The notes below the pieces were generated by a model. That model had not been told where the DNA came from, made no database searches, and worked only from the letters and a program-made list of their open reading frames with translations. A program made the translations under genes and the position numbers. From an uncultured Spirochaetota bacterium (GTDB lineage: Bacteria; Spirochaetota; Spirochaetia; SZUA-6; Fen-1364): 64,000 bases of DNA. Below, piece by piece: positions 1 through 64,000 of the stretch (positions are counted from its first letter, which is position 1; each line of letters starts with the position of its first letter). Location: contig CAVTER010000004.1 in assembly GCA_963733835.1 (NCBI GenBank), positions 43,102 through 107,101 on the forward strand, read 5' to 3'.

Positions 1-106
1 GGGGGGAGCTGGTCGCCCACCTTGAGGGTGCCGTTCCTGATCAGGGTCTTGATCTGCAGGGCGACGGTCTCGTACAGCCGCGCGCGCTTGATCGGTTCGA
101 GCATGG
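1..106 (-). CDS. GntR/FadR-family transcriptional regulator, N-terminal HTH fragment; the gene continues beyond the window start
   Basis: Reverse-strand translation from an ATG near 106 gives [34 protein letters not shown], a typical GntR winged-HTH N-terminus. It is truncated by the window edge. Confidence 0.55.
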
Positions 107-144
107 GGGGAGTATATCAGCAGAATCGATCTTCGACACCGGGA

Positions 145-2763
145 TCACCCGTCGGCGAGCCGGCGCTGCTCCAGGAACGCGGCGAGGAACCGTGCCGTGT
201 GCGACCCGCGCCGTACGCGCGCGACCCGCGCCGGGCTGCCCTCGGCCACGACCCGTGCCGCCCGCCTCTCCGCCCTCGGGCCCCAGGTCGATCACCCAGT
301 CCGCCTCGGCGATGATGTCGAGGTTGTGCTCGACGATCACGACGGTGTTGCCCGCGTCCACCAGCCGGTGCAGGACACGGATGAGCTTCTCCACGTCGGC
401 CATGTGCAGGCCGATCGTCGGCTCGTCGAGCAGGTACAGCGTGCGCGGCCCCCCGGCCCTCGCCCGGGCCAGCTCGGTGACCAGCTTGATCCTCTGCGCC
501 TCCCCGCCGCTCAGCGACGGGCTCTGCTGGCCGAGGGTGATGTACCCCAGGCCGACCGCATCGAGCAGCTCCAGGGCGTGGCGCACGCCGGGGTGAAAAT
601 CGAAGAACCTGGCGGCCTCGTCCACGCTCATGGCCAGGACGTCCGCGACGCTCTTTCCCCGGAAGGTCACCGCCAGCGTCTCCTCGTTGAAGCGCCGTCC
701 CCCGCAGGAGTCGCACGGCACGGTCACGTCGGGCAGGAAGCTCATCTCGATGCGCTTCATGCCCTGGCCGTCGCATTCCTCGCACCGGCCCCCGGCCACG
801 TTGAACGAGAACCGGCTCGCCGTGTACCCGCGCATCCGCGCCTCGGGGGAGGCGGCGAACAGGCGGCGCACGTCGTCCCAGATGCCGACGTAGGTGGCGG
901 GGCACGAGCGCGGCGTCTTGCCGATCGGCGTCTGGTCGACCTCGAGCACCCTGCCCACGGCCTGCCAGCCCTCGATGGCACGGCAGCCGTGCAGACCGCC
1001 CGCGGGGGCCGCCCGGCGGCGCGAGCCGGCCACGAGACGGCGCATGTTCTCGTAGAGGACGTTGCGCACGAGGGTGCTCTTGCCGCTGCCGCTCACACCC
1101 GTCACGCAGACCAGCCTCCGCAGGGGCACCTCGACGTCGAGGTCCTTCAGGTTGTGCAGGGCGGCCCCGCGGATGAGAAGCGACGGCGCGGGAGCCTGCC
1201 CCGGCCCGGGAGGCGTCCGCCCCGCGAGGGGATGGCGCAGCGGCTCGCGGAGGAACTTCGCGGTGAGGGACGCGCGGCTTCGCATGACCTGGGCGATGGT
1301 TCCCTGGGCGACCAGCCGTCCGCCGTTCACCCCGCCGCCCGGGACCGAGGTCCACGATGTGCTCGGCCCTGCGGATGGTTTCCTCGTCGTGCTCCACCAC
1401 GACCACGGTGTTTCCCTTCTGCCGCAGGCTGCGCAGGGTGTCCAGGAGCACGAGGTTGTCGCGCGCGTGCAGGCCGATGGTCGGCTCGTCGAGGATGTAG
1501 CAGACCCCGCGGAGGTTGGATCCGAGCTGCGAGGCCAGGCGGATGCGCTGCGCCTCCCCGCCGCTCAGCGTGGGGGCGGAGCGGTCCAGCGACAGGTACG
1601 AGAGGCCCACCTGTTCGAGGAAGGCGGCCCGGCTGTCGATCTCGGCGACGATGTCCCGGGCGATCTCTTTCTCGCGGCCGTCGAGGGCCAGGCCGCGCAT
1701 CTCGGCCGCCATCCCGGACACCGGGAGCCGTGCGTACTCGGCGATGTTCTTCCCGCGGAATCGCACGGCGAGCGCCTCGGGCCGCAGGCGAAGGCCGCCG
1801 CAGGCGGGGCAGGTCTTCTCGGGCCCCTCCCACCAGTCGTTCCACCAGATCTCCTCGCCCGTCTGCTCCGCGTCGAATCCCGAGAGCTGCTGGCCCGTGC
1901 CGAAGCAGGACGGGCACCAGCCGTGCCGGGAGTTGTACGAGAACAGGCGCGGGTCCAGCTCCTCGAAGCTCCTGCCGCACCGCGGGCAGGCCCGCTTCGT
2001 GGAGAAGGTGATCGTGCCCGTGGCCGTGCGCGACGCGCACCACGCCCCTGCCGAACTCCAGGCCCCTTCCCAGCAGCGCGCGAAGGGCCCGTTCGTTCTC
2101 GGGCCGGGCCGTCACCTCGCCCACGGGCAGCTCGATCGTGTGCTCGCGGAACCGGTCCAGCCGGGGCCACGGCGCCGTGGGGACAGCCTCGCCGTCCACG
2201 CGCAGAGCGTCGAACCCCCTGGCCGCGGCCCAGGCGGCGAGGTCGGTGTAGTACCCCTTGCGCGCCGTGACCAGGGGCGCCAGCACGCCCACGCGCCTGC
2301 CCCGGTAGTCGTGCAGCACGCGGGCGAGGATGCTCTCCGCGGTCTGGGGCGGCGATGGGCACGCCGCAGTCGGGGCAGTGCTGCGTGCCCAGCTTGACGA
2401 ACAGCAGCCGCAGGAACGGGTAGATCTCGGTGAGCGTGGCGACGGTGCTCTTCCTGCCGCCCCGGCTGGTGCGCTGCTCGATGGCCACCGTCGGCGGCAC
2501 GCCGAAGACGCCGTCCACGTCGGGCCGTGCGCCGGCTGCACGAACTGCCGGGCGTAGGCGTTCAGGGACTCGAGGTAGCGACGCTGCCCCTCGGCGAAGA
2601 GGATGTCGAAGGCGAGGGTGCTCTTGCCGCTGCCGCTCACGCCCGGTGATCACGCTGAAGGCGTCGCGGGGGATGCGCAGGTCGATGCCCTTCAGGTTGT
2701 GCTCGCGCGCGCGGCGGATGACGATCTCGCCGCCCGCGCGGGCGGGCCGCCGGCTCGGGGCAC
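145..2763 (-). CDS. uvrA: UvrA-family ABC ATPase, downstream tandem paralog B (excinuclease subunit A-like), with at least 4 frame disruptions
   Basis: Minus-strand ORF fragments 41..1330, 117..1766, 1327..2640 and 1565..2653 together cover a full UvrA: [12 protein letters not shown], Walker A ([12 protein letters not shown]), a CPDCG zinc finger, [14 protein letters not shown] signatures, [12 protein letters not shown] and the C-terminus ...[14 protein letters not shown] with its stop near 145. The frame changes at a G homopolymer near 2655. Confidence 0.7.
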
Positions 2764-2829
2764 CCGCCGGCGCTGCTGCCGGCCCGGCCGCCGTGCGTTG
2801 TCGCGCGCGCGGCGATGCGCCGGAAGGCC

Positions 2830-5553
<2,724 letters not shown>

Positions 5554-5671
5554 CTTTCCCAGCGGGATGGAGAGGGAGAGGTTTTTCAGCTTGTTCTGCC
5601 GGGCCCCCTCGATGCGGATTGCGGCCGCCGGGGGCCGCCGGGCGCGGGGGCGCGGGGAGGAGGGGGTGGGC

Positions 5672-15161: not shown

Positions 15162-15676
15162 ATGAGCACAGCACTTCAGAAGCGTCCAATCGACGAGGTG
15201 ATTGCGAGCCACCCGCCCAACCGGGACCACCTGATCTCCATCCTGCAGGAGGTCCAGGGCGAGTATGGCTACCTCTCCCGCGACAGCATCAACAGGATCT
15301 CCGACTACCTGAAGCTGCCCTCGTCGAAGGTCTTCGGCGTGGCCACCTTCTACAACCAGTTCAAGCTGACCGCGCCGGGGAAGATCCAGATCCAGATCTG
15401 CCGGGGAACGGCCTGCCACGTGAAGGGATCGCTCAACCTGCTGGACGCCCTGATCACCGCGCTGGGCATCGAGGTCGGCCAGACGACCAGGGACGGGCTG
15501 TTCTCGCTCGAGACGGTCGCGTGCCTCGGGTGCTGCTCCATCGCTCCCGCGATGATGGTGAACGGGAGGTTCTTCGGCCGGCTCGACAAGAAGCAGGTCG
15601 AGGAGCTGGTCGACAAGTTCCGCGCCGCGGGCGGGGTCGACGGCGCTTCCGGGCCGAGGCCGGGGGGTGGAGGCAT
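15162..15676 (+). CDS. hydC: NuoE-like [2Fe-2S] subunit of an NADH-dependent [FeFe]-hydrogenase (HydC/HndA-like); no stop seen before the downstream HydB-like sequence
   Basis: MSTALQKRPIDEV...QICRGTACHVKGS...CLGCCSIAPAMMVNGRFFG is the NuoE/24-kDa 2Fe-2S motif. Upstream are a GGGGAGA RBS and an AT-rich promoter. A Gly-rich linker (GGVDGASGPRPGGGG) runs directly into the next domain in the same frame. Confidence 0.7.
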
Positions 15677-17512
15677 GAACAAGGTCTTCATCGGCATGGG
15701 CACCTGCGGCCTGGCCACCGGCGCGGGCGAGGTGAAGACGGCGGTCGAGAAGTGGGCGGCCGCGCGGCAACGTGGCGCGTGCAGATCACCCCGACGGGCT
15801 GCATCGGCTACTGCAAGGCCGAGCCGATCATGGACGTGGTGACCGACACGGGCCACCGGGTCTCCTACGGCAACGTCACTCCCGAGGTGGCCAGCTTCAT
15901 CCTGGACGAGGTGTTCGTGCGCAGGAACACTGAAGCTCGACGGCCTGCTGGGCCAGTTCAGGAACGGCAAGGCGCCGCTCGCCGGGCATCCCCCTGATCG
16001 ACGAGCACCCCTACTTCCGCAAGCAGGTGAAGTACGTGCTGCGCAACTGCGGGGTCATCAACCCCGAGTCCATCGCCGACTACCGCGCGCACGGCGGGTT
16101 CAAGGGCCTGGAGCGTGCGCTGCACCATGACCAGCGCCGAGGTGATCGCCGAGATCACGAAGTCGGGCCTGCGCGGCCGCGGCGGCGGCGGGTTCTCCGC
16201 CGGCAAGAAGTGGGAGTTCGCCCTGGCCTCGAAGAGCGAGAAGAAGTACGTGATCTGCAACGCCGACGAGGGCGACCCCGGGGCCTTCATGGACCGCTCC
16301 ATCCTCGAGGGCGACCCCTTCTCCGTGCTCGAGGGCATGATCATCGCCGGCTACGCCATCGGCGCCAACGAGGGCATCATCTACTGCCGCGCCGAGTATC
16401 CCCTCGCCATCGAGCGGCTCAGGAAGGCCATCGGCGTCGCTGAAGGCGGAGGGGCTTCTCGAGAAGCCGCGTCGGTCCGAGCGGGCTTCCAGTTCACCCT
16501 GCGGGTGAAGAAGGGCGCCGGCGCGTTCGTCTGCGGCGAGGAGACCGCGCTGATGGCCTCGGTCGAGGGCCGGCGCGGCATGCCCCGGCCCCGGCCGCCG
16601 TTCCCCGCCGTGTCGGGCCTGTTCCAGAAGCCCACGATCATCAACAACGTGGAGACCTTCGCCAACGTGCTCGCACATCCTGCGCGAGGGGGCCGCGCGC
16701 CTTCGCGGCCATGGGCACCGCAGAGCCGCAAGGGCACGAAGGTCTTCGCCCTCACCGGCAAGGTGATGAACACCGGCCTGGTCGAGGTGCCCATGGGCAT
16801 CACCCTGCGCGAGATCGTCTTCGACATCGGCGGCGGCATCCCCGACGGCAAGGCCTTCAAGGCCGTGCAGATCGGCGGTCCCTCGGGCGGCTGCATCCCG
16901 GCCGAGCACCTGGACACGAAGATCGACTACGAGTCGCTGAAGTCCGTCGGCGCCATGATGGGCTCGGGCGGCCTCGTGGTGATGGACGAGGACACCTGCA
17001 TGGTGGACGTGGCCCGCTACTTCCTGCGGCTTCATCACCACCGAGATCCTGCGGCAAGTGCATCCCCTGCCGCGAGGGCACGCAGCGGCTGTACGAGATC
17101 CTCGACTCCATCGTCTCGCCCTACTCGCAAGATGAAGAGCGAGGAGGACAACCTCCTGCGCTTCAACCGGGTGCTGAACATGGAGAGCCTGGCGCAGGTG
17201 ATCAAGGACACCTCGCTGTGCGGCCTGGGCCAGACGGCGCCCAACCCCGTGCTGTCCACCCTGCGGTACTTCCGCGAGGAGTACGAGGCGCACATCTACG
17301 ACCGGAAGTGCCCGGCCCACCAGTGCAAGGGCCTGCTGACCTACGAGATCGACACCGACGCCTGCACGGGGTGCACGCTGTGCGCGAAGAAGTGCCCCAC
17401 GCAGGCCATCGTGGGCGAGAAGAAGAAGGCCCACTACATCGTGGACGAGAAGTGCATCCGCTGCGGCATCTGCCGCGACGTGTGCCGCTTCAACGCGGTG
17501 ACGGTGAGCTGA
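15677..17512 (+). CDS. hydB: NuoF-like flavoprotein subunit of an [FeFe]-hydrogenase (HydB/HndC-like) with an N-terminal thioredoxin-like [2Fe-2S] domain; at least 4 frame disruptions
   Basis: The pieces are MNKVFIGMGTCGL...ITPTGCIGYCKAEP (Trx-like ferredoxin), then RNCGVINPESIADYRAHGGFKGLERAL, then ORF 16115..17512 with GRGGGGFSAGKKWE, the FMN/NADH motifs CNADEGDPGAF and GAGAFVCGEETALMAS, ESCGKCIPCREG (after a shift), and C-terminal 2x[4Fe-4S] CxxCxxCxxxCP. Confidence 0.75.
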
Positions 17513-17525
17513 GGAGGCGACATCG

Positions 17526-19256
17526 ATGGTGAACCTGACGATCAACGACCGGAAGACCCTGCAGGCCGCCCCCGGGACGACGATCCTGGACGCGGCGACC
17601 GCCGCGGGCGAGCGAGATCCCCACCCTGTGCCACATCAAGGAGCTGTTCCCGAGCGGCGCCTGCCGCATGTGCGTGGTGGAGTGCAAGGGGCAGCCCGGC
17701 CTCATCCCCTCCTGCGCCTTCCCGGTCGAGGAGGGCATGGAGGTCGCAGACGCGCAGCCCGCGGGTCGTCGAACGCCCGCCGCACGATCATCCAGCTCCT
17801 GCTCGCGAGCCACCCCTTCGACTGCCTCACCTGCGCCGAAGAACGGCTACTGCGAGCTGCAGTCCCTGGCCTCGGAGTACGGCATCGACAGGGTGCCCTT
17901 CGAGGGCAAGACCCGCCACCACTACACCGACTTCTCCTCCCCCTCCATCATCCGCGAGCCGGACAAGTGCATCCTCTGCGGCCGCTGCGTGCGCATCTGC
18001 GAGGAGATCCAGGGCGTGGCGGCCATCGACTTCACCCGGCGCGGCTTCGACACCATGGTGCTGCCGCCCTTCGAGATGGACCTGAGCGAGACCACCTGCG
18101 TCAACTGCGGCCAGTGCACGCTCGCCTGCCCGACCGGCGCGCTGCACGAGGTGCGCGCCGTCGAGAAGGTGATCCAGGTGCTGCAGGAGGGCAAGAAGTA
18201 CGTCGTGGCCCAGGCCGCCCCCGCGATCCGCGTGTCGCTGGGCGACTTCTTCGGGCTGGCCCCCGGCGCCAACGTGACAGGCAAGGTCGCCGCGGCGCCT
18301 GCGGCGCATGGGCTTCCGCCAGGTCTTCGACACCGACTTCGCCGCCGACCTCACGATCATGGAGGAGGGCACGGAGCTGGTGCGCAGGATCACGGAGGGC
18401 GAAGAAGCTTCCGCTGTTCACCTCCTGCTGCCCTGCCTGGATCAAGTTCGCCGAGCACTACTACCCCGAGCTGCTCGCGAACATCTCCACCTGCAAGAGC
18501 CCGCAGGAGATGATGGGCGCCACCATCAAGAGTTACCTCGCGAAGAAGATGTCGATCGACCCGCGCGACATCTACGTGGTGTCGGTGATGCCCTGCACGG
18601 CCAAGAAGTACGAGGCGCTGCGGCCCGAGCTGTCGAAGGACGGCGTCACGGACGTGGACGCGGTGCTCACCACCCGCCAGTTCAACAGGATGATGCAGAT
18701 CTTCGGCATCACCTTCGAGAGCCTCCCCGAGGAGGAGTTCGACAAGCCCTTCGGCGCGCCCACGGGGTCGGGCGACATCTTCGCCGCCTCCGGCGGGGTC
18801 ATGGAGTCGGCCCTGCGCTCGGCCTACTACCTGCTCACGGGCAAGGACCTGGAGAAGCTGGACTTCGAGGCCGTGCGCGGCATGGCCGGGGTGAAGGAGG
18901 CCAGCGTGAAGGTGGGCGACCGCACCATCCGCGTTGCCATCGCCAACCGCCTGTCCAACGCACGGCAGATCGCCGACAGGGTGCGCGCGGGGGACTCGCC
19001 CTGGGAGTTCATCGAGGTCATGGCCTGCCCCGGCGGCTGCGCCGGCGGCGGCGGCCAGATGTACGGCTACGACCCGCAGAGGACCGAGCAGAGGATCAAG
19101 GCGATCTACGCCCTGGAGAAGAGCAGGTCGGTGCGCCAGTCGTACAAGAACCCGGCAGTCGCCTCCGTGTACAAGGAGTACTTCGGCGAGCCGGGCTCGC
19201 ACACGGCGCACGAGCTCCTGCACACGAGCTACGAGTCACGGCCCCAGAAGGGCTGA
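17526..19256 (+). CDS. hydA: [FeFe]-hydrogenase catalytic subunit (HydA/HndD), about 3 frame disruptions
   Basis: An N-terminal 2Fe-2S/4Fe-4S ferredoxin region is followed by H-cluster motifs L1 (TSCCPAW), L2 (MPCTAKKYE) and L3 (EVMACPGGCAGGGGQ) in the 17526..19256 frame. Parts of the N-terminus sit in frames 17668..18513 and 18308..19369. Confidence 0.8.
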   Translation: MVNLTINDRKTLQAAPGTTILDAATAAGERDPHPVPHQGAVPERRLPHVRGGVQGAARPHPLLRLPGRGGHGGRRRAARGSSNARRTIIQLLLASHPFDCLTCAEERLLRAAVPGLGVRHRQGALRGQDPPPLHRLLLPLHHPRAGQVHPLRPLRAHLRGDPGRGGHRLHPARLRHHGAAALRDGPERDHLRQLRPVHARLPDRRAARGARRREGDPGAAGGQEVRRGPGRPRDPRVAGRLLRAGPRRQRDRQGRRGACGAWASARSSTPTSPPTSRSWRRARSWCAGSRRAKKLPLFTSCCPAWIKFAEHYYPELLANISTCKSPQEMMGATIKSYLAKKMSIDPRDIYVVSVMPCTAKKYEALRPELSKDGVTDVDAVLTTRQFNRMMQIFGITFESLPEEEFDKPFGAPTGSGDIFAASGGVMESALRSAYYLLTGKDLEKLDFEAVRGMAGVKEASVKVGDRTIRVAIANRLSNARQIADRVRAGDSPWEFIEVMACPGGCAGGGGQMYGYDPQRTEQRIKAIYALEKSRSVRQSYKNPAVASVYKEYFGEPGSHTAHELLHTSYESRPQKG

Positions 19257-26309: not shown

Positions 26310-27446
26310 TCAGTACACGAACGCCGCGCCGGCGAGGAAGGAGAGCCCGCCGCGGCGGTTCGACGCCCAGCTGTCGGTGTCGTCGCCGAGTGCGACGCTG
26401 GCCATCGCAACAAGGGAGAGCCCGGTGTGCAGGCTCACGCTCACGCCGGGCACGATCACCGCGCTGCCGTCCACCGGCGAGACCAGCGCGCGGGCGCTCA
26501 CCGTGACGCGGGAGTCGACGGCAAGGGAGGCCTCCGGGTACAGCAGCAGGCCGTAGACAGGTGCCGGAGGAAATGGGGCATCCGATTCCTGCCACTCGCC
26601 CGCGGGGGCACAGAGGGCCTCCATGCGAAGCGACAGTGTCGCGCGCGGGCCGAGGCGCTGGAGGTGAAACACACCGGCGCTCAGGCGAAGGGTGTCCTGC
26701 AGGTCCTCCAGGCGCGGGGAGGTGGAGGGGACGGCCGTGCCTGCCGACAGGTGCCAGTCGACGAACAGGTTTCCCTGGAGCGAGACCGCGGCCTGGTGCA
26801 TCCCCGTCTCCCCCCGGTAGAGGTAGTCCGCCTCCACCTTGGTGCCCGCCAGCCTGCCGACAAGCCGCCCGCCCGCGGCGGCCGAGGTCACGTCGGGAAG
26901 AGGGGAAGAGGGGTTGGCGATGAACGCCGCCACGTCGATGCCCGGCGGCAGCGCCACCGCCTCGGCAAAGCTGAACCTGCCCAGGGGCACGTACAGCGCG
27001 GCAAGCCACGAGGAGTCATCGCGCAGCACGTCTCCTGTCAGGTCGAGGCCTGCCGCGGAGGAGCTGCCGTACAGGAGGTCAGCGGCGTTGAACGCCACGC
27101 CCTCTCCCCAGGAGAGCCGGGCCTTCCCGAGGGTGAGCCGCACGCCGGACGGCGCATCGCCGCCGGGGAATCGCACGGCGACGAGGGCCCGGGCGATCGA
27201 CGCGGAGACGCCTTCGCCCAGGAGACCGTCCAGGGCGAGCTCGGCCTTCACGTTCTCCGACTGGGAGGACAGGCTGACACGGGCGGTCCCGAGGGAGAAG
27301 AAGGCCCAGTCCGACGATGCCTCTCGCGTGAGAGTCTCGAGCACGCGGAGCCGCACGCCGAGGTCGACGTCGGCTGCCGCGGAGACGGCCGCTGCCAGGC
27401 CGGCGCAGGCCGCGAGGAGCGCACGGGCCGCGCGGCGGCCTACCAC
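26310..27446 (-). CDS. Outer-membrane beta-barrel protein (hypothetical) with signal peptide
   Basis: A 378-aa ORF with an Ala-rich signal peptide, alternating amphipathic beta-strand pattern and a C-terminal F-V-Y outer-membrane insertion motif. It is the last gene of the minus-strand operon. Confidence 0.6.
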   Translation of the reverse strand: MVGRRAARALLAACAGLAAAVSAAADVDLGVRLRVLETLTREASSDWAFFSLGTARVSLSSQSENVKAELALDGLLGEGVSASIARALVAVRFPGGDAPSGVRLTLGKARLSWGEGVAFNAADLLYGSSSAAGLDLTGDVLRDDSSWLAALYVPLGRFSFAEAVALPPGIDVAAFIANPSSPLPDVTSAAAGGRLVGRLAGTKVEADYLYRGETGMHQAAVSLQGNLFVDWHLSAGTAVPSTSPRLEDLQDTLRLSAGVFHLQRLGPRATLSLRMEALCAPAGEWQESDAPFPPAPVYGLLLYPEASLAVDSRVTVSARALVSPVDGSAVIVPGVSVSLHTGLSLVAMASVALGDDTDSWASNRRGGLSFLAGAAFVY

Positions 27447-28243
27447 GTCAACCTCTCCAGGGAGAAGAGCGCGGGGTCGAGGGCGAGGCCGATCGCGATG
27501 TCCTCGACGACGAACTCGGTCACTGAGCCCTTCTTCAGCTTGTCTTCAAGAACGACGCGCATCGGGATCGTGCGCCCGCTCACCTGGCGGAAGCCGGACA
27601 TGCGCGACTCCTTGAGCAGCCGACCCGAGAGCGAGAACTGCTGCATCCTGCGGGGGCTCCACGCCTGCGGGTCGATCCAGGCCAGTTGCCGGGGGTAGGC
27701 CACGTTCCTGCCCCTTGCTTTCATGGCGATGCGCCAGCAGTCGACCCCGTCCACCGCCTCGCTGCCCTCCAGGGTCACCTCGTACAGCTCGAGGATGTTC
27801 CGTCCCCCGGTCAGGTCTTCGTAGGACATGTCGGAGCCGAGGACAGCGTCGCGGAAGGCGGCGCCCTGCAGCCGGATCAGCTCCTCGGCCCCGGGGTAGA
27901 AGAGGTAGATCTCGTCGCGGGTGCGCAGGATCTTCTGGCCCTTCTCCTCGGCGCTGGTGAACTCGATGAGCGCATCGCCGGCTCCGCGGCTGTACGAGAG
28001 GAAGGTGGTGACCCGGGTGCCGAACCTGTCGGTCACCGTCATCCTGCCCCGCGTGCGCGAGGTGTCGTACACCTGGTTGGCCTGCATCCTGCGCACGATA
28101 TCCTCGGCGCTCCTGGCGCCCTCGGCGCTCCTGGCGCCCTCGGCGCTCCTGGCGTCCTGGGCGCAGGCGGCAGCCGCTGCCAGGGCCAGGAGCGCGGCCG
28201 CAAAGGCGGGGCGTGTCCATAGACGCATGGGAACCTCCCTCAT
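27440..28243 (-). CDS. LolA-like / outer-membrane lipoprotein-sorting-protein-family periplasmic protein, with a 3x tandem AEGARS repeat after the signal peptide
   Basis: MRLWTRPAFAAALLALAAAAACAQDARSAEGARSAEGARSAEDIV... and a LolA-like beta-barrel region (GRMTVTD...IEFTSAEEKGQKILRTRDEIYLFYPG). Its start overlaps the stop of the upstream permease (ATGA). Confidence 0.6.
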   Translation of the reverse strand: MREVPMRLWTRPAFAAALLALAAAAACAQDARSAEGARSAEGARSAEDIVRRMQANQVYDTSRTRGRMTVTDRFGTRVTTFLSYSRGAGDALIEFTSAEEKGQKILRTRDEIYLFYPGAEELIRLQGAAFRDAVLGSDMSYEDLTGGRNILELYEVTLEGSEAVDGVDCWRIAMKARGRNVAYPRQLAWIDPQAWSPRRMQQFSLSGRLLKESRMSGFRQVSGRTIPMRVVLEDKLKKGSVTEFVVEDIAIGLALDPALFSLERLTW

Positions 28244-29472: not shown

Positions 29473-29493
29473 TGCAGATTCCCTCCCGGTCGC

Positions 29494-35587: not shown

Positions 35588-36853
35588 ATGAAGATGCGGA
35601 AGGTTCTGTGTGTTGCCCTGGTCCTCCTGCTTGCCGTGGCGAGCCTTGCGATGGCGCAGAAGTTCGCCGGCAAGAGCATCAGGGTGCTGTACTTCTCCGC
35701 GACCTACGCGGATGCGGCGAAGGAGTACGCGAAGGAGTTCCAGCAGAAGACCGGCGCAAAGGTCGAGGTCGTCGACTTCCCCTACGTGACGCTGTACGAG
35801 AAGATGGGCCTCGCCCTGTCGACGGGAGACGACTCCTACGACGTGGTCACCCCGGCCTGCCAGTGGGACGGGGAGTTCGAGCCGTTCATGGAGGACCTGG
35901 CGCCCCTCATCAAGAGGGACAAGTTCGACTCGGCGGACATCATCCCGAACCTGTGGGAGCAGTCGGGCAAGTGGAACGACAGGATCATGGGCATCCCGTT
36001 CTCCAACACGCCCCAGACCCTCGCCTACAGGACCGACCTGATAAAGAAGTTCCCCACCAACTGGGACGAGTTCTTCACCGTGTGCGCGAAGCTCAACAAC
36101 CCGGCCAAGGGCTTCTATGCCATCGCCATCCCCGGCGTGAAGGAGCAGCTGTCGGGCCTGTGGATGATGGTCCAGTGGTCGCTGGGCGGCAGGTGGGCAG
36201 ACGAGGACTGGAACCTGGCCATCGACTCGCTGGAGACGCGCAGGTCCCTCGAGGTCACCAAGAAGTGGTTCAGCTACGCCGACCCCGCGTCTCCCGCCTG
36301 GGGTCTCGGTGAATCCGACGCGGCGTTCCTCGCCGGCAACGCGGCCATCGCGTTCTCCTGGCCCACCCTGGGAATCGCCCCCAACGGCGACAACCCCGAG
36401 AAGTCGAAGGTCGTGGGCAAGTGGGCCATCGCGCCCATCCCCTATGCCAAGAACGGCGTGACGGTGCTCTCCTCGTGGGACATCGGCATCCCCAAGGCGG
36501 CGAAGAACAAGGACGTGGCCTGGGAGTGGATCAAGTTCTACACCAGCAAGGAGAAGCAGCTGTCGAACTTCACAAAGTACTCGATCCTGCCCTCGCGCAT
36601 CTCGGTGTGGCAGCTTCCCCAGGTGAAGAACAGCAAGCTGTACCCGCACTGGCAGGCCTCGCAGCAGGGCGCGGTGATCTGGTGGAGGATCCCCGCCGGC
36701 ACCATGGCCGAGACCTACGTGCGCGACGCTGTGTCCAACTACGTCACCGACCAGTGGGGCCTGAGCAAGGCAGTGTCGTTCATGGAGGACGGCCTGCAGA
36801 AGCTGCTCGAGGAGTACCCGCCCGCCCCGGGGGTCAAGAACACCGGCCGCTGA
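35588..36853 (+). CDS. ABC transporter extracellular solute-binding protein (family 1, sugar/oligosaccharide type) lipoprotein
   Basis: A signal peptide (MKMRKVLCVALVLLLAVASLAMAQ) and a family-1 SBP fold. A sigma70-like promoter (TTGACG-17-TAGAAT) and a GAAGGAG RBS lie upstream. Confidence 0.8.
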   Translation: MKMRKVLCVALVLLLAVASLAMAQKFAGKSIRVLYFSATYADAAKEYAKEFQQKTGAKVEVVDFPYVTLYEKMGLALSTGDDSYDVVTPACQWDGEFEPFMEDLAPLIKRDKFDSADIIPNLWEQSGKWNDRIMGIPFSNTPQTLAYRTDLIKKFPTNWDEFFTVCAKLNNPAKGFYAIAIPGVKEQLSGLWMMVQWSLGGRWADEDWNLAIDSLETRRSLEVTKKWFSYADPASPAWGLGESDAAFLAGNAAIAFSWPTLGIAPNGDNPEKSKVVGKWAIAPIPYAKNGVTVLSSWDIGIPKAAKNKDVAWEWIKFYTSKEKQLSNFTKYSILPSRISVWQLPQVKNSKLYPHWQASQQGAVIWWRIPAGTMAETYVRDAVSNYVTDQWGLSKAVSFMEDGLQKLLEEYPPAPGVKNTGR

Positions 36854-36926
36854 CCTGAGTGTCGTTCCGGAGGGCCCCCCGCGAACTTCCGTGGGGGCCC
36901 TCCTTCTTCCCGGGAGGATCCACGGC

Positions 36927-37829
36927 ATGCTCGTGACGAGAACACTCTACCAGAGCACCACCGACAGGCTGCTCTCCTGGCTTTTCGTGCTGCCCGTCAT
37001 CCTCATCCTGCTCGTGGCGGCGTTCATCCCGCTGGGGTGGGGCCTGTACTTGAGCTTCTTCCGCTACAAGCTCAACATGCCGTCTGTCACCGCCTTCATC
37101 GGGCTGAAGAACTACCTGAACATCTTCACCGACGAGCTGCTGATCCGCAGCCTGCGCAACAACGCCATCTTCGCGACGGTGTCCGTCCTCCTCGAGCTCG
37201 TCGTGGGGGTGGTCATCGCGATGATGCTCTCGAGCGACAGCCGCCTGTCGCGCGGAATGGTGAGCATCCTCATGGTGCCCATGATCATCGCCCCCGTGGC
37301 GGCAGGCACGCTGTGGCGCATGATGCTGGACCGCACCTACGGGGTGGTCAACTACCTGCTCTCGTTCGTGGGGATCAAGCCCCTCTCCTGGATCGGCGAT
37401 CCCAAGCTCGCCCTGTACACCGTGTCGCTGGTCGACGCGTGGCTGTACATCCCCTTCGTGGCGGTGCTCATGCTCTCCTCGATCAAGGCCATGCCGACCA
37501 GCTTCCTGGACGCGGCGCGCGTGGACGGCGCCTCGCCCTGGAAGGTGTTCTGGAAGATCATCCTGCCCATCACCTCGCCTGTCATCATCATCGTGGCCAT
37601 GCTGCGGTTCATCGACGCGTTCAAGGTGTTCGACACGATCTTCGTCATGACGCAGGGCGGCCCCGGCAACGCCACGGAGATGCTGCCCACCTACATCTAC
37701 CGCCAGGGCATCAAGTTCCTGAACATCGGCTACTCGTCGGCCACCGCCATCGTGTTCGTGGCGGCCATGTCGATCATCGCCTGGGTGTTCCAGAAGCTGC
37801 GCGACAGCCAGCTCGCGAGGCTGGGGTAG
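36927..37829 (+). CDS. Sugar ABC transporter permease (MalF/UgpA-like)
   Basis: Six TM helices and the EAA loop (AARVDGASPWKVFWKIILP). Confidence 0.8.
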   Translation: MLVTRTLYQSTTDRLLSWLFVLPVILILLVAAFIPLGWGLYLSFFRYKLNMPSVTAFIGLKNYLNIFTDELLIRSLRNNAIFATVSVLLELVVGVVIAMMLSSDSRLSRGMVSILMVPMIIAPVAAGTLWRMMLDRTYGVVNYLLSFVGIKPLSWIGDPKLALYTVSLVDAWLYIPFVAVLMLSSIKAMPTSFLDAARVDGASPWKVFWKIILPITSPVIIIVAMLRFIDAFKVFDTIFVMTQGGPGNATEMLPTYIYRQGIKFLNIGYSSATAIVFVAAMSIIAWVFQKLRDSQLARLG

Positions 37830-37833
37830 CGCC

Positions 37834-38712
37834 ATGCAGGAACGACGCGCGCGCTCGACACGCAGGACCCGCGACCAGCAGCTTGCGAACTTCCTGAGCC
37901 TTCCGGTGCGGATCGTGGTCCTGGTGGCGGTCATGGCCGCGATCCTCTTCCCGCTGTACTGGCTGGTCAGCAACTCGCTGAAGCAGGAGCAGGAGTACTA
38001 CCACAGCCCGCCCATCATGTTCCCCACGAAGGTCACGGGGGAGAATTACGTCGAGATCGTCGCGAAGCGGGGGCTGTTCGCGGGGCTGAAGAACTCGCTT
38101 CTCATCGCGGCCTTCACGACCCTCGCCACGGTGCTCTTCGGCAGCCTCGCCTCCTACTCGCTGGTGAACGGGATGCTGCCCCGCAGGGTGAAGAACGGTT
38201 TCGCATGGTGGTTCCTCATCCAGAAGATGTACCCCGCCATCGTCGTGGCGGTGCCCGTGTTCTACATAGTGCGAAGCCTCCGCCTGATGGACAGCGTGGC
38301 CTCGCTCGTGCTCATGAACACGAGCTTCAACCTGCCGCTGGTGATCCTGCTGATGGTGGGGTTCTTCCAGGAGGCTCCCTTCGAGGTGGAAGAGCAGAGC
38401 ATGCTGGACGGGGCAAACCTCGCGCAGCGCTTCTTCCACATCACCGCTCCCATGGTCAAGAGCGGCATGATCGCCACCGGTATGCTCACCTTCGTGGCGA
38501 GCTGGAACGAGTTCCTCTACGCCGTCATCCTCACCATCGTGAAGGCCAAGCCGCTGACGGTGCTCATCGCGGGGTTCATCACCGACAAGGCGCTGATCTG
38601 GGGTCCCATGGCCGCCATGGGCTGCGTGGTCATCGCGCCCGTCCTGGTGATCATGTGGCTGATGCAGCGCGATTTCATCAGCGGCGTGTCTGCCGGTGCG
38701 CTGAAGGGCTGA
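37834..38712 (+). CDS. Sugar ABC transporter permease (MalG/UgpE-like)
   Basis: Six TM helices and the EAA-like loop (EQSMLDGANLAQRFFHITAPM). Confidence 0.8.
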   Translation: MQERRARSTRRTRDQQLANFLSLPVRIVVLVAVMAAILFPLYWLVSNSLKQEQEYYHSPPIMFPTKVTGENYVEIVAKRGLFAGLKNSLLIAAFTTLATVLFGSLASYSLVNGMLPRRVKNGFAWWFLIQKMYPAIVVAVPVFYIVRSLRLMDSVASLVLMNTSFNLPLVILLMVGFFQEAPFEVEEQSMLDGANLAQRFFHITAPMVKSGMIATGMLTFVASWNEFLYAVILTIVKAKPLTVLIAGFITDKALIWGPMAAMGCVVIAPVLVIMWLMQRDFISGVSAGALKG

Positions 38713-38722
38713 GGACGGCGGC

Positions 38723-39922
38723 ATGGTCGACACGCGGCCCGGCATCCAGCGGGAGCGGATGAACGGGATCCTGCGCGCTCTCCTGGACGGCGGCAGGCTC
38801 ACGCGCGCGGGCCTCGCCGCGACGCTGCGGCTCAGCCCCTCCTCCATCGTGAAGTACGCGAAGGTGCTCATCGACAAGGGCCTCGTGCGCGAGGCGGACA
38901 GGGAGCTGTCCACGGGAGGCCGCAGGTCGACGCTCCTGGAGCTGAACGCCGAGGCGGGCCTGAGCGTCGCCGTCGTCTTCGAGGCGAGCGCCGTGCGGGG
39001 GGCCGTCGTGGACGCGGCCGGGCGCACCGTGTCGGAGGCGGCGGTGCCGGCAGGGCAGGGCATCGCGCGCGGGGAGCTGCTCGCGGCCATGGACAGCCTG
39101 CTGGAGGGGCTGCTCGCCGCCGCGCGCAAGGCGGTGCCCCGGGTGCTGGGCATCGGCATCGGCATCGGCGGGTACATGGACCCGGTCGATGGAGTCTCGC
39201 ACGAGTACCTGTACGCGAGTGACTGGTACGACGTGCCGCTGCGCAGGCTGGTGGAGGACCGCTGGGGCCTTCCCTGCTACCTCGTGAACGACGCCAACGC
39301 CTGCGCGCTGGGCGAGAAGCACCGCGGCATGGGCGTGGGGGTGCGCGACTTCCTGTGCGCCTGGATCGGCGAGGGCGTGGGCATGGGCATCGTTGCCAAC
39401 GGCGAGCTGTACACGGGCAGGAGCTGGTACGCCGGCGAGTTCGGGCACATGCACGCCGTGGACGGCGGACAGCTGTGCTACTGCGGCCACTCGGGGTGCC
39501 TGGAGACGGTCTGCTCGCAGGAGGCGATCCTGGCGGCGTGCCGCGAGGGCCTGCGCCAGGGGGTGGCGAGCGACATCCGCAAGCAGATCGCGGGGGACCC
39601 CGACTCGGTGGCCATCGCGCAGGTGGTCGACGCGGCGAACAACGGCGACAGGTTCGCGAGGAACGTCATGGTCCGGGCGGGCGACGCGCTGGGGGCGAGG
39701 CTGGCCGACGCGGCCAACCTCTTCAACCCCGAGATGATCATCCTGCGCGGCCCCGTGATCGACGCCAACGCGTTCCTCTTCGAGCGCATCAGCGGCGTGG
39801 TCACCCACGAGACGCTGCGTCCCACGGCACGGGCGCTGCGCCTGGCATACTCTCCCGAGCGCAGGGACATCCGGTTCGCGGGGGTCGCGAGCGCGATCCT
39901 CATGGACTACTTCGCGAGGTAG
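38723..39922 (+). CDS. ROK-family transcriptional regulator (NagC/XylR-like: N-terminal HTH plus sugar-kinase-like domain)
   Basis: An HTH (RAGLAATLRLSPSSIVKYAKVLIDKGLV), the ROK glycine motif GIGIGIGG and the zinc motif CYCGHSGCLE. Confidence 0.8.
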   Translation: MVDTRPGIQRERMNGILRALLDGGRLTRAGLAATLRLSPSSIVKYAKVLIDKGLVREADRELSTGGRRSTLLELNAEAGLSVAVVFEASAVRGAVVDAAGRTVSEAAVPAGQGIARGELLAAMDSLLEGLLAAARKAVPRVLGIGIGIGGYMDPVDGVSHEYLYASDWYDVPLRRLVEDRWGLPCYLVNDANACALGEKHRGMGVGVRDFLCAWIGEGVGMGIVANGELYTGRSWYAGEFGHMHAVDGGQLCYCGHSGCLETVCSQEAILAACREGLRQGVASDIRKQIAGDPDSVAIAQVVDAANNGDRFARNVMVRAGDALGARLADAANLFNPEMIILRGPVIDANAFLFERISGVVTHETLRPTARALRLAYSPERRDIRFAGVASAILMDYFAR

Positions 39923-39928
39923 GACGAG

Positions 39929-41029
39929 GTGACATCGAGAGAGAGAGTGGCGGCCGCCTTCGCGCACCGCGACCCCGACAGGACGCCCCTGTTCGAGTAC
40001 GTGCTCCTGCCGCCCGTGGCCGGGCAGGTGCTGGGACGACCGTTCATCGAGTACCTGGGCGGCATGGAGCCGTGGCTGGCGGCTGCCGCCGAGCAGGGCT
40101 TCGAGCGGCTCCTCGGCTCCTACGCGCGCGACAGGGTGGAGATCGCCCGGCGGCTGGGCCACGACATGATCTGCCTGAGCCCCAACCCCGTGCCCGGGGC
40201 CGCCTACTCCTACGACCCCCTGTCCGAGATCGGGGCGCAGTTCACCGTCGCGGCCGAGGGTGACCCCGTGCAGCGGCTGGTGGAGCGCAACCGCAGGGTG
40301 GCCGAGACCATGCTGGGCGAGCTGCCCCGGGACAGCTACCTCGTGTACGACCTCGTGCGCGAGGAGATGAGGCGGCACGGCATGGACCTGCCCATCCTCG
40401 CACCCGCGTACTACCACGGCATCTGGACCGACGCCGACCTGATGCAGGTCATGGTCCTGGAGCCCGAGGTGGCGCGCGAGCACTTCCGCCTGGCCACGCG
40501 CAGGGCCCTTGCCGCGATCGACGACTACACCCGCCTGGGAATCGACTGCATCGGGATCGGCGGCGACTTTGCCGGGGTGCGCCTGCTCATCTCCCCCGAG
40601 TCCTACCGCCGGTTCATCGTCCCGGAGGTGGCAGCGTGCGCCCGTCGGGTGCGCGCCGGAGGGGCCCGGTCGGTGAACGCCTCGGACGGGAACCTGTGGC
40701 CGGTGCTGGACGATTTCCTGGATGGGTGCGAGGTGGACGCGTACCTCGAGATCGACATGAGCGCGGGCATGGACCTGGCCCGGCTGAAGGCGGCCTGGGG
40801 CGGGCGCATCACCTTCTTCGGCAACATGGACTGCGGGAAGATCCTGAGCTTCTCGACCCCCGAGGAGATCCGCGCCGTGACACTGTCCATCCTCGATGCG
40901 GGGTGGGGCGGGGGCGGGCACATCTTCACGGCGAGCAACGCCATCACGGCGAGCGTGCCGCTGGCCAACTACCTCGCCATGGTGAACGCATACAGGGAAA
41001 GGTTCGCCCTCGGGCCGCTGAGCCTCTGA
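39929..41029 (+). CDS. Uroporphyrinogen-decarboxylase (URO-D)-family protein (methyltransferase MtaA/CmuA-like)
   Basis: A 366-aa intact ORF with a URO-D-like TIM barrel (RTPLFEYVL...DCIGIGGDFAG...FFGNMDC). Confidence 0.6.
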   Translation: MTSRERVAAAFAHRDPDRTPLFEYVLLPPVAGQVLGRPFIEYLGGMEPWLAAAAEQGFERLLGSYARDRVEIARRLGHDMICLSPNPVPGAAYSYDPLSEIGAQFTVAAEGDPVQRLVERNRRVAETMLGELPRDSYLVYDLVREEMRRHGMDLPILAPAYYHGIWTDADLMQVMVLEPEVAREHFRLATRRALAAIDDYTRLGIDCIGIGGDFAGVRLLISPESYRRFIVPEVAACARRVRAGGARSVNASDGNLWPVLDDFLDGCEVDAYLEIDMSAGMDLARLKAAWGGRITFFGNMDCGKILSFSTPEEIRAVTLSILDAGWGGGGHIFTASNAITASVPLANYLAMVNAYRERFALGPLSL

Positions 41030-41044
41030 GCCTTCCGAGCCGCA

Positions 41045-41072
41045 TGGTGGGCGTTTCCGCGGAAACGCCCAC
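41045..41072. terminator. Perfect 13-bp stem / 2-nt loop GC-rich hairpin between convergent genes (bidirectional terminator candidate)
   Basis: GGTGGGCGTTTCC-GC-GGAAACGCCCACC sits in the 60-bp gap between the two convergent URO-D-family genes. No U-tract follows. Confidence 0.5.
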
Positions 41073-41089
41073 CACGGCGACCCGGTCGA

Positions 41090-42145
41090 TCAACGGCTGC
41101 CGTGCGGCTGGCTGCCCGCCGCGGCATGTTCCTCGCAGGCCCTCACCATTGCCCGCAGGTTCTCCAGGGGCGTCATGCGCGGCACGCCGCAGCCCGGCGA
41201 GAGAATCACGCCCCGCTCCATGCCCGGCTCCTCGAGGATGCGCCGGCAGGCTGCCGTGACCTGGTCCGGGCGCGCCTGCAGCAGGAACGTGGTGTCGAGG
41301 TTGCCCTTGAGCGCGATCCTCCCGCCCAGCAGCTGCCGTGCCAGCGCCATGGGCACCTTCGAGTCCACCTCGAAGCCCTGGAAGGGCACGCCGGCCAGGA
41401 AGTGCAGGAGGTGGTCGGTCCTGCCGCAGATGTGGATCCACAGGTCGCAGTCCCTGCCCGCGAGCGCGTCGATCGCCTTCTCCTGCCAGGGAAGGACGAA
41501 CTTCCGGTAGTCCGCGGGCGAGACGAGGCTGGCTGTCGCGTCGCCGAACTGGATGGCGTGTACGCCCGTGGCGATCATCGCTTTTCCATACGCGACGACG
41601 ACCTCGGTGCAGAAGGAGAGAAGCTCGCGCAGGTCCGCCTCGTTCTCCGTCGAGAGGTCCATGAAGAAGTCCTGCGCTCCCCGCAGCACGGCGGCGAGGC
41701 TGAAGGGGCCCGTGTCGATGTTGGCCTGGATGTAGTACCTGTCCCCGGCGGCCGCCACGACCCTGCGGGCTGCATCGAGGAGGGTTGTCATGCCGGGGGC
41801 GCTCGCGGGGTCGGGCACGCGGAGCTTGCGGAAGTCCCTCACCGAGTCAAGCAGCACCGTCCTGCTGAACGACTCGTCGTCGTCGGGGAAGGTGAGCTCC
41901 CCGCCCAGCGCCTGGTGGTAGACCCAGTTGTCGCGCGAGACGTAGATGCCGTCGAAGCCGCACATCTGGCGGGCTTTCAGCAGCGTGTCGGCCATGACCG
42001 CGGAGTCGGTCATGTACCTCCCCTGCGGCACCCCCGTGAGCTGGCAGGCAGGAGCCAGCAGGATCGGGAAGGTGGGGACCCTGTCGACAGGCTCGCCGCG
42101 CACCGCCGCGCGCGTCCGCTGCAGCCCCGTCATCTCACTGGACAT
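41090..42145 (-). CDS. Uroporphyrinogen-decarboxylase (URO-D)-family protein, second paralog
   Basis: MSSEMTGLQRTRAAVRGEPVDRVPTFPILL...ICGRTDHLL...ILSPGCGVP is a URO-D/MtaA-like fold. Confidence 0.6.
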   Translation of the reverse strand: MSSEMTGLQRTRAAVRGEPVDRVPTFPILLAPACQLTGVPQGRYMTDSAVMADTLLKARQMCGFDGIYVSRDNWVYHQALGGELTFPDDDESFSRTVLLDSVRDFRKLRVPDPASAPGMTTLLDAARRVVAAAGDRYYIQANIDTGPFSLAAVLRGAQDFFMDLSTENEADLRELLSFCTEVVVAYGKAMIATGVHAIQFGDATASLVSPADYRKFVLPWQEKAIDALAGRDCDLWIHICGRTDHLLHFLAGVPFQGFEVDSKVPMALARQLLGGRIALKGNLDTTFLLQARPDQVTAACRRILEEPGMERGVILSPGCGVPRMTPLENLRAMVRACEEHAAAGSQPHGSR

Positions 42146-42554
42146 CGAACCCCTCCTTCCGCGCGGCCTCCGCCAGCCGCTCATCGGAGGTGAGCAACGC
42201 AAGCGTCGCCGGGTTCTCCGACGAGGCTGCGAGAGCAGCAGCGAGCTGCAAGGCGTCCGCGGCCCTCAGCGGGTGCACCCGCAGCAGCCGCATCGCCCTC
42301 GCCCTGAGCTGGCTGGTCGGCAGCACCTCGTGCCAGCTCTCCGCGAGCGACTCGAGCGCGGAGAGAGCGTGAGAAAGCTGCTGGTCATCCAGGCCGCCCT
42401 CCCGGCGAAGACGATTGAGGGCCGACGCGCATTCCAGCCGGCACGCCCACCAGACCGTCATCTGCGGGTCGGAGAGCAGCAGTGACTTCCGGCCCTCGGT
42501 CTGCTGCTCGGGGACGAGCAGGGGGATGACCGCCGAGGAGTCCCAGAACCTCAT
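42135..42554 (-). CDS. vapC: PIN-domain toxin (VapC-like)
   Basis: MRFWDSSAVIPLLVPEQ... has PIN acidic residues. It overlaps the upstream antitoxin gene. Confidence 0.7.
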   Translation of the reverse strand: MRFWDSSAVIPLLVPEQQTEGRKSLLLSDPQMTVWWACRLECASALNRLRREGGLDDQQLSHALSALESLAESWHEVLPTSQLRARAMRLLRVHPLRAADALQLAAALAASSENPATLALLTSDERLAEAARKEGFDVQ

Positions 42555-42922: not shown

Positions 42923-44160
42923 TCATCCCAGCCACCTCTGCATCCACTCGAAGGCCTCCGCCTGCATGGGCAGGTCGAACTTGTGCGGGCCCGGGTAAAG
43001 GGAGATGCGGAACGCGTCGGGTGCGCCCGCCTTTGCGTAGGTCTCGGCCAGGATCTCGTCCTGCCCGCTCGATCTCCCCGCGGGTGTACAGCGGGTCTTC
43101 CGTGGTGGACAGCACCAGGCTGGGAAGCGGGGCGCGCACGGCCAGCATCTCGGGGAAGTCCATCTGCCCCGGGATGCCGGGCGGGTAGATCATCCACGTG
43201 TGCGTGTAGCTCACGTTCCTGCAGAAGTCACGCCACGTGGTCATGAAGCCGACCACCACGGTGCAGCGCACCCTGTCGTCTGCCCCGGCCAGGAAGACGC
43301 TCCTCATGCCGCCCCCGGAAAGGCCGCCGCAGCCCAGCCGGCGAGCCGTCCACGTCGGGACGGGAGGCGAGGTACGAGAGAGCCGCGGAGTCTTCTGCGA
43401 GCGTGACACCCGGCCACGTCGTGCCCGCGCAGAGCAGCGACTTGGCAACGATGGTCTCGTGCTGGCCGGCAAAGGCGTTGTACCTCGCGATGGCAGCCTC
43501 CGGCTCGTCTGTGGGGACCTCGTAGCGCAGGACGGGATCAGTCGAGGCGAGGTCCGCGGGCAGCATCTCGCGCTGGGCTTCGGGGGCTGCCATGAGCTTC
43601 TCCACCGCGAAGGGAGGGAGGCCCGAGGCGAGCACCTTCCTGCTCTCGAAGGGGAACACGTCGTGGACGAGCACCGCGAACCCGCGCCGGGCGATCTCGT
43701 TGGCCCACGCCCTTCCGCCGTAGTACTCGGCCTGGTGGCGGCTCATCATGGCGTGCTGCGGGGAGGCAGTGCGGGAGATCTTCCGCTTGCCGAAGAACTT
43801 GTTCGCTGCGTGGTCGTGCAGCGCGAGCACGCCGGGGAGCTTTCCCGTCGCCCCCGCGGGCTTCAGGAACACGGCCTGGGTGCGCGGTCCCCAGGGCAGC
43901 TGCCACGAGAGCTCCTCGACCGCGAGTCCTTCGTGCAGGTACGCCGCGTGCACCTGCACCTCGGCGGCACCGACCGGGCTCCCGTCCGGCTGGACGGGAC
44001 AGCGGAAGCAGCGGGCAAGCTCCTCCCGCGCTGCCTTCTTCCACGCCCCGAGGTCCGTCCAGCGCGGGTTTCGGAACGACAGGCTGCCCGGCCCCTCGGC
44101 AGCCCGGGCCGCTGCCCACTCCCCGTAGGCGCCCAGCATGGTGAGCGGTGACTGTGCCAT
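42923..44160 (-). CDS. Alpha/beta hydrolase (acetyl-xylan-esterase / dienelactone-hydrolase-like), 2 frameshifts
   Basis: The N-terminal part is in ORF 43228..44160 (LALHDHAANKFFGKRKI...), the middle part in 42882..43472 (SGGGMRSVFLAGADDRVRCTVVVGF, a nucleophile region), and the C-terminus (QDEILAETYAKAGAPDAFRISLYPGPHKFDLPMQAEAFEWMQRWLG) in a third frame. Confidence 0.6.
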
Positions 44161-63614: not shown

Positions 63615-63763
63615 CCGCAGCATCGGAGCACGAGGGCCCACGACGGGCGAGAACCCGGCCTGCGCAGGCAGCGTGGGCCGGGCGCTCCTGCCGGTGGCGA
63701 GCGGCTCGCAGGGGCGGAGGATCGTCCGCAGACGTGGCGATGGCTATCGTCACGAATACCTGG

Positions 63764-63794
63764 TTGACATACTTTTGATACTATAGTACTATAG
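63764..63794 (+). promoter_or_regulatory. Promoter plus palindromic operator upstream of the RHH gene
   Basis: TTGACA-17-TACTAT. The palindrome CTATAGTACTATAG overlaps the -10. Confidence 0.45.
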
Positions 63795-63828
63795 CGATGT
63801 GAATCATCAACCGTCGGGCAGGTTTGTG

Positions 63829-64000
63829 ATGAGAGTTCCCCCGAAGCTCCACGCATCCCTCAGGAAGCGTGCACGCGATACGGGGGTCTCGTTGAACAGC
63901 CTGTGCCTCGCCGCGCTCAATCGGCAACTCGGGGAGGGCAGTGCCTGCGACGAGGTACGGGCCATCCCGGTGCAGCAGATCAAGGAACTTGTCGGCGAGA
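63829..64000 (+). CDS. Ribbon-helix-helix (Arc/CopG/HicB-like) DNA-binding protein, probably a TA antitoxin; truncated by the window end
   Basis: MRVPPKLHASLRKRARDTGVSLNSLCLAALNRQLGEG is a beta-alpha-alpha RHH. A TTGACA-17-TACTAT promoter with a 14-bp palindrome lies upstream. Confidence 0.55.
   Translation, partial: MRVPPKLHASLRKRARDTGVSLNSLCLAALNRQLGEGSACDEVRAIPVQQIKELVGE

Follow-up and report, generated by a model that had tools for sequence, protein, structure and literature searches.

The 64,000-nt stretch of contig CAVTER010000004.1 from an uncultured Spirochaetota bacterium (positions 43,102 to 107,101; the whole stretch is called the window below) contains approximately 56–58 frame-breaking insertions and deletions (indels) in about 12–13 genes, among them a fused, double-length uvrA gene and the hydrogenase genes hydB and hydA. 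These frame breaks are almost certainly an assembly artefact of some kind and no biological feature. The artefact probably arose when two haplotypes were merged in a long-read metagenome assembly, with a consensus that doubled the variable sites, while the genes of the organism itself are most probably intact. The argument draws on what was observed: how many indels there are, of which type, at which positions and in which codon phase, how they cluster, that the orthologues are intact and that the corrected proteins are conserved. The G+C content of the window is 69%, its proteins match metagenome-assembled genomes (MAGs) labelled Spirochaetia or Spirochaetota, and Rfam and tRNA scans of the window gave no matches. 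The truncated open reading frame (ORF) at 41..1330 corresponds with 100% identity to a protein (P0121) from a contig of 134,363 bp in NCBI/ENA, and therefore the breaks are truly present in the source assembly, which annotated the fragments.

The frame breaks were located using a custom protein-to-DNA aligner, which permitted 1- or 2-nt shifts and took intact orthologues as references. When the protein of one intact relative was aligned to the DNA of another as a control, no events were found within the coding sequence. A hidden Markov model (HMM) of codon usage was used as a second detector of frame switches, and it reproduced the reference-based events. The references came from loci of relatives around uvrA (L006–L085, drawn from species-representative genomes), the hybrid kinase gene (L001–L004), hydB (L086 and L087) and the GlpA-like gene (L088–L167), while three AGE-family proteins (P0361, P0363 and P0366) served for the AGE epimerase. 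A plot of the G+C content at third codon positions (GC3) with a simple ORF segmentation showed many same-strand frame changes without space for gene borders; this approach, which missed closely spaced and compensating insertions, was replaced by the aligner and the HMM. According to the NCBIfam coordinates, consecutive fragments cover consecutive segments of two models, UvrA and MsbA-like. References taken from stop to stop caused spurious aligner events upstream of true starts, and the events at 7395, 10678, 50759 and 52236 were rejected as artefacts of this kind.

The data showed that the pervasive frame disruption proposed in an earlier reading of the window (the original prediction) was borne out by frameshift-aware alignment, with no in-gene events in the controls. 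Its extent was different than proposed, as about 12–13 genes were counted instead of at least 15, and the numbers of events per gene reached 14 in hydB and approximately 25 in uvrA instead of 1–6. No in-frame stop was present in any reference-aligned gene after correction. Two stretches which had been described as clean, 27.4–33.0 kb and 35.5–42.2 kb, contained no in-gene frame switch and gave Pfam matches near full length. The first of these clean controls (27443..33092, minus strand) contains genes of a GntR and an SPFH protein, an ABC ATPase, two FtsX permeases and a LolA-like protein, while the second (35570..42265) contains a sugar ABC transporter, a ROK regulator and two URO-D-like genes. 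The genes of a GNAT protein, an aldo-keto reductase, response regulators, a threonine-aldolase-like protein, a HAD protein, a HAMP-cyclase, a second cyclase, a DUF1801 protein, AroC, an EIIA protein and a PII-like protein were also intact. The same was true for hydC (15162–15641) and the Cache/HAMP sensor kinase gene (46466–48295), both of which had been listed as broken.

The single-base insertions were classed according to which base or run, if removed, best restored the match to the orthologue (n = 43, three of them added from the alignments of the GlpA-like pair and the AGE epimerase). In 36 of the 43 insertions two adjacent, different bases were found, either of which could be removed with an equally good best match to the orthologue. 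Random insertion was expected to give this synonymous-ambiguous class in 42% of cases in a local simulation, and in 44% when the full pipeline was applied to the intact genes of relatives (P ~2e-8). The doubled bases were located at third positions of codons, as in GTC[G]CTG (GTG CTG in relatives), and in two-fold codons they formed the exact synonymous pair, as in GAG[A], GAA[G] and AAC[T]. In four cases the site was the first position of arginine codons, where A and C are synonymous. Three of these were insertions ([A]CGG at 256, [A]CGC at 22046 and [C]AGG at 34223), and the fourth was a deletion which turned (A/C)GG into GG at 2526. Insertions outnumbered deletions approximately eight to one (~43 single-base and ~4 double insertions versus ~6 deletions), and in simulation the aligner turned insertions into deletions in only 3 of ~480 cases. 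The contexts of the sites, such as GTC[G]CTG, GAG[A]TCC, AAC[T]GGA and GGC[A]CGC, were varied, and no shared sequence or methylation motif was seen when they were compared. Neither codon-blind sequencing error nor neutral mutation can favor synonymous sites, while differences between co-occurring strains do; the enrichment is indirect evidence that the indels coincide with sites that vary between haplotypes.

One of the two explanations offered in the original prediction was long-read error concentrated in GC-rich homopolymers, with a proposed check of whether the breaks lie in runs of at least four bases. The artefactual nature of the breaks agrees with this proposal, but the homopolymer mechanism is refuted, as only 1 of the 43 insertions was a clear extension of a run versus 29% expected in both simulations (P ~7e-6). 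No reliable event was found in runs of four or more bases, which make up 5.2% of the window, so there was no enrichment; the only candidate, at 10678, disappeared once the annotated ABC exporter protein served as the reference. The break which had been placed at 2655 and read as an extra G in a run was confirmed as a break, but is located at 2644, where it could be either an extra G in GGG or a wobble doubling of ACC/ACG. More generally, ordinary residual error unrelated to strains, in which random indels, including homopolymer miscalls, would persist because of low coverage or poor polishing, is an unlikely source of the breaks. Such error is compatible with the triple G at 4960, which fits a run extension, and with the insertions at 17835 and 15929, which have no synonymous alternative. 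Additionally, a near-finished consensus of MAGs from Nanopore reads alone requires high coverage (PMC9262707). However, residual error predicts that about 44% of the insertions should be synonymous-ambiguous and about 29% should extend runs, while the observed values were 84% and 2%, and a codon-blind process leaves unexplained both the excess of insertions and the codon-phase bias. The near absence of run extensions would, on the other hand, be expected from merged strains, because the doubled bases would then be two different alleles.

The indels are strongly clustered along the window. Two blocks of approximately 3 kb contained 44 events (24 and 20, which corresponds to 7.5 and 7.6 per kb), compared with 9 events (0.4 per kb) in the remaining 22.4 kb of coding sequence that was checked against references. 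The edges of the blocks disregard the edges of genes, as they fall inside uvrA, hydB and hydA. Conservation was considered as the cause of the dense blocks and was rejected, because its Spearman correlation was a modest 0.32–0.39 and because the ABC exporter gene is conserved yet nearly clean; the position within a block matters more for the density of events. A patchy distribution could also mirror local dips of coverage, which would suit residual error. Adjacent different bases at synonymous sites, combined with blocks that ignore gene borders, are the pattern expected from merged haplotypes.

The first dense block (2019..5208, minus strand) contains ~24 indels in 3.2 kb and covers the 5′ 60% of the fused uvrA gene (145..5634, minus strand), which encodes two UvrA units in a protein of ~1,830 aa after correction. 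Eight references were aligned to this region, and every one of them gave 24–27 frame-breaking indels, with positions that agreed. The consensus positions in the block are 5208, 5164, 5100 (deletion), ~4950, 4878 (deletion), 4765, ~4720, 4247, ~3955, ~3930, ~3914, ~3880, 3812, ~3795, ~3345, ~3100–3130, ~3037, 2969, 2875 (deletion), ~2800, ~2727, 2644, ~2527 (deletion), 2353 and ~2019. Two isolated +1 insertions are located further toward the 3′ end of the gene. The insertion at 1343 (GGT[C]CCG), which was placed at the same position with all eight references, yields the 429-aa fragment annotated by the source assembly (ORF 41..1330, the P0121 protein). In the other insertion, at 256 (GGC[A]CGG), both the A and the C of the arginine first position are present, where a relative has AGG.

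The breaks in uvrA had been assigned to two copies of the gene. The breaks were confirmed, while the two copies were not, because in eight relatives, from short-read as well as long-read assemblies, a single stop-to-stop ORF of 1,839–1,950 codons extends over both UvrA halves, and therefore the two copies are one gene. The fragments in the window place in order on the UvrA model, twice over, the alignment spans both halves without an in-frame stop, and the 1,850-aa protein of L006 gives two matches to the same model. Fused UvrA proteins of ~1,850 aa with two complete units per ORF were observed in the window and in L006 (6305–11854), L007, L008, L009, L011, L013, L017 and L079. The stop codon of the gene in the window is TGA (147–145, minus strand). 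An in-frame ATG, GTG or TTG was sought upstream of the conserved UvrA N-terminus between 5949 and 5547, and none was found until 5547, which is too late, as the start codon of relatives is located 25–48 codons upstream of the conserved N-terminal motif. A further error may have removed the start codon, or else the gene may overlap, with its N-terminal region, the end of the GNAT gene; the 5′ end given here is approximate because there is no canonical in-frame start codon. With the standard UvrA model the fused UvrA reached a score of 2,053 bits, spread over three stretches, but only 1,143 with the double-UvrA model NF001885 (1,809 positions), under the cut-off of 3,054, and therefore the fusion of this clade looks, from its sequence, distinct from the NF001885 family.

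The second dense block (15768..18404, plus strand) contains 20 insertions in 2.6 kb and is located in the hydrogenase genes. The hydB gene (15675..17512, plus strand), which encodes a NuoF-like hydrogenase subunit, has 14 single-base insertions and no deletions, at 15768, 15778, 15929, 15981, 16123, 16439, 16470, 16483, 16667, 16698, 16720, 17027, 17046 and 17128. The hydA gene (17526..19256, plus strand), encoding the large subunit of [FeFe]-hydrogenase, has six single-base insertions, at 17616, 17746, 17771, 17835, 18298 and 18404, which are all in its 5′ half and were placed at the same positions with four references. Hence, of the three hyd genes proposed to be broken, hydB and hydA are broken, while hydC is not. 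The block begins 90 nt into hydB and stops in the middle of hydA, with hydC upstream and the 3′ half of hydA clean. Further downstream, a +1 insertion was found at 20542 (CTG[C]CCG, plus strand) in the gene of a HydS-like sensory hydrogenase/histidine kinase (aligned residues at 19285–21286), in which a hydrogenase-like domain is fused to HisKA/HATPase. The hybrid response-regulator/histidine kinase gene (21758–23258, plus strand) was broken, as proposed, by one +1 insertion, at 22046 (GGC[A]CGC, compared with AGG in a relative; arginine first-position A/C). The hydC-hydB-hydA genes, the HydS-like gene, a single-domain response regulator and the hybrid regulator-kinase form a conserved cluster (15162–23258, plus strand), with an identical gene order in L001, L004, L086 and L087, and this cluster is a candidate hydrogen-sensing regulatory unit.

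The comparison with relatives showed where the genes are intact. The short-read contig GCA_964353885.1, from which L006 and L086 derive, is syntenic with the window at 5.7–23.3 kb, and all its genes are intact. The short-read relatives L006/L086, L087, L009 and L013 had no in-gene events, and the fused uvrA of long-read relatives with contig_N names had 0–8. Frameshifts in the fused uvrA of other long-read Spirochaetota were seen in L005 (ERZ25039512 contig_15302, 5400–12100), with eight events, and in L012, L015 and L016, with one or two each. The problem is therefore not peculiar to this contig, and a few frameshifts in the same gene of long-read relatives are also what ordinary residual error could leave.

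The second possibility raised in the original prediction was that the breaks reflect genuine gene decay. Pseudogenes in a decaying lineage would be consistent with the facts that the indels stand in the deposited sequence, that the source annotation has truncated proteins (such as P0121), and that several genes are hit repeatedly, as in old pseudogenes. The data nevertheless make this explanation very improbable. In bacterial pseudogenes substitutions exceed indels several-fold, and therefore ~50 neutral indels should be accompanied by hundreds of substitutions and several stops; neither stops nor excess divergence were seen. The heavily hit genes amount to ~3,000 codons after correction, and no in-frame stop was found in them, even though 2.7% of random substitutions in these codons would create one. 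The corrected HydB has 607 aa and aligns to 607-aa homologues with 89–90% identity over 100% coverage. The identity to L086 was 0.90 for the corrected HydB and 0.93 for the N-terminal half of HydA, compared with 0.81–0.85 for unbroken neighbors, which makes the corrected hot segments the most conserved of the cluster, and the distances of both corrected proteins were in line with those among relatives, so the divergence is not raised. Bacterial pseudogenes also show a deletion bias, which is the reverse of the insertion excess observed here, and the preference for synonymous sites goes beyond neutral mutation. Moreover, the blocks begin and end within genes and cross gene borders, neighboring genes of the same operon are untouched, and the genes are intact in all relatives. 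The window resembles the pseudogene-rich genomes of host-restricted bacteria in having many interrupted genes, some with several frameshifts. In Mycobacterium leprae, Sodalis and Rickettsia, however, pseudogenes also carry nonsense mutations and deletions, their amino-acid divergence is raised and whole genes are affected, while nonsense mutations, raised divergence and whole-gene damage were not seen here.

The perfect conservation of the proteins between the indels and the lack of stops could also suggest that the insertions are real and are tolerated by some unknown recoding, either translational frameshifting or removal of bases from the transcript, which would skip or remove one nucleotide at dozens of sites so that full-length UvrA, HydB and HydA are made. 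This explanation is the least credible of those considered and can be given next to no weight. The contexts of the indels are heterogeneous, with no common slippery or stimulatory motif, and in close relatives the genes for these proteins are free of indels. To our knowledge there is no bacterial precedent for 14 corrections in one 1.8-kb gene, and an artefact accounts for the same facts more simply.

The merging of strains could produce the observed pattern as follows. Two closely related haplotypes would be merged into one contig, and at sites of substitution the consensus would keep both alleles next to each other, which would give a +1 insertion, or, more rarely, neither of them, which would give a −1 deletion. 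The haplotype differences would be mostly synonymous, located at third positions of codons and at the A/C first position of arginine codons. The two ~3-kb blocks would be the places of greatest divergence between the haplotypes, while elsewhere the haplotypes would be nearly identical and the events rare. Similar effects have been described in other systems. metaFlye merges highly similar strains, such as pairs 97.6% and 98.65% identical, into consensus contigs (PMC8302730), in which the consensus is a mixture, as proposed here; that study documents the collapse and a loss of marker genes by indels, and not the signature of two doubled alleles. In an early FALCON assembly of the hummingbird genome, indels were found at haplotype-variable nucleotides, and were cured by phasing with FALCON-Unzip (PMC5632298). 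As is proposed for the window, these indels were computational and located at differing nucleotides; they broke gene models and were absent from phased or short-read assemblies. That case is different in that it concerns a diploid vertebrate and PacBio reads, while here it would be a metagenome with co-occurring bacterial strains, probably assembled with Nanopore/Flye/Medaka. The homopolymer-length errors in consensus sequences from Nanopore R9, 454 and Ion Torrent (PMC9262707) are also single-base indels, which frameshift conserved genes and are commoner in long-read-only assemblies. This class of errors, however, lies inside runs of identical bases and often consists of deletions, while most indels in the window are insertions, at sites that follow the codon phase.

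Several points weigh against the merging of two haplotypes. About 7 of the 43 insertions, such as TGC[G]CCG at 17835, do not fit a synonymous doubling, and to explain some of them either a non-synonymous variant or an ordinary error is required. The events in L005 are without a clear doubling signature; they lie in poorly aligned regions and are uninformative. No assembly of the same population was found in the searched databases, where the best relatives were 91% (hybrid kinase) and 90% (corrected HydB) identical at the protein level. The two haplotypes are deduced from the sequence of the contig, and the platform and pipeline used for it were probably Nanopore/Flye/Medaka; many of the relatives belong to the Microflora Danica MAGs, for which Flye and a single round of Medaka were applied to Nanopore R10.4.1 reads. 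We infer that strains were collapsed in a long-read source assembly and that each pair of doubled bases represents two alleles.

Outside the dense blocks and the hydrogenase cluster, scattered events were found in several genes, most of which had been listed as broken. The gene of an MsbA-like ABC exporter (8892–10635, minus strand) has one +1 insertion at 9441 (AAC[T]GGA), in which two synonymous asparagine alleles are adjacent. In the AGE-family epimerase gene (34085..35278, minus strand), where the Pfam coordinates are divided between frames, alignment to the three AGE-family proteins placed two events, a +1 insertion at 34223 (GAC[C]AGG, arginine first-position C/A) and a second event near 34813. 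The GlpA-like FAD oxidoreductase gene (50763–~52212, plus strand; DAO and BFD domains) and its Pyr_redox_2 partner (52241–53516, plus strand) have one +1 insertion each, at 51777 (TCG[C]CCG) and 52799 (CTC[G]GCG). Around the expected end of the GlpA-like gene (~52212), no stop in its frame was found between 52203 and 52244 (plus strand), which suggests one further undetected indel in its last 40 nt. The TGA at 52242 overlaps the GTG start of the partner gene (GTGA), but in another frame than that of the GlpA-like gene.

Further frame switches were predicted by the HMM alone. Two of them, at ~43066 and ~43342, are in a gene without a Pfam match (42929..44142, minus strand), with the old frame open for 183 and 113 nt beyond the respective switch, and another one, at 62635, is in a second gene without a Pfam match (62127–62973, minus strand), with the old frame open for 662 nt beyond. 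The possible switch at 54839, at the 3′ end of a PrsW/TPR gene (54574–55907, minus strand), may be a gene border, as a stop in the old frame is located 22 nt away. The HMM switch at 46488 was rejected because it corresponds to the end of the sensor kinase gene, where both flanking genes align in a single frame, and those at 58844 and 59979 were rejected as gene borders, while flips at 56.4–57.0 kb were noise within one open, low-GC ORF. This ORF (56345–57727, minus strand) has 460 open codons, atypical codon usage and a local G+C content of 0.63 versus 0.69, and may be foreign DNA; a Pfam scan of its central 182-aa part, the sole part scanned, gave no match.

Other features of the window were also observed. 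A GntG-family/low-specificity threonine-aldolase-like gene (7840–8892, minus strand) is located between a response regulator gene and the ABC exporter gene, and has no counterpart at the corresponding site of L086, the short-read relative with synteny. Two PIN-domain genes (23297–23929 and 42138–42793, both on the minus strand), each with a short ORF upstream, likely form VapBC-type toxin–antitoxin pairs with these ORFs.

These data have consequences for how such genomes are read. Frameshifts in long-read bins need not be located in homopolymers, and this class of errors would escape polishing or filters that are designed around homopolymers. The remedy is to assemble with strain awareness, to polish with phasing or to correct the frames with proteins as a guide. 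Gene counts and a claim of two uvrA paralogs based on the fragments would be wrong, as there is one double-length gene. The label of pseudogene should be avoided for the fused uvrA, the ABC exporter, the AGE epimerase, the GlpA-like pair and the hydCBA genes with the HydS-like sensor and the two-component genes, and the functional systems assigned to the broken genes stay valid after the repair of their frames.

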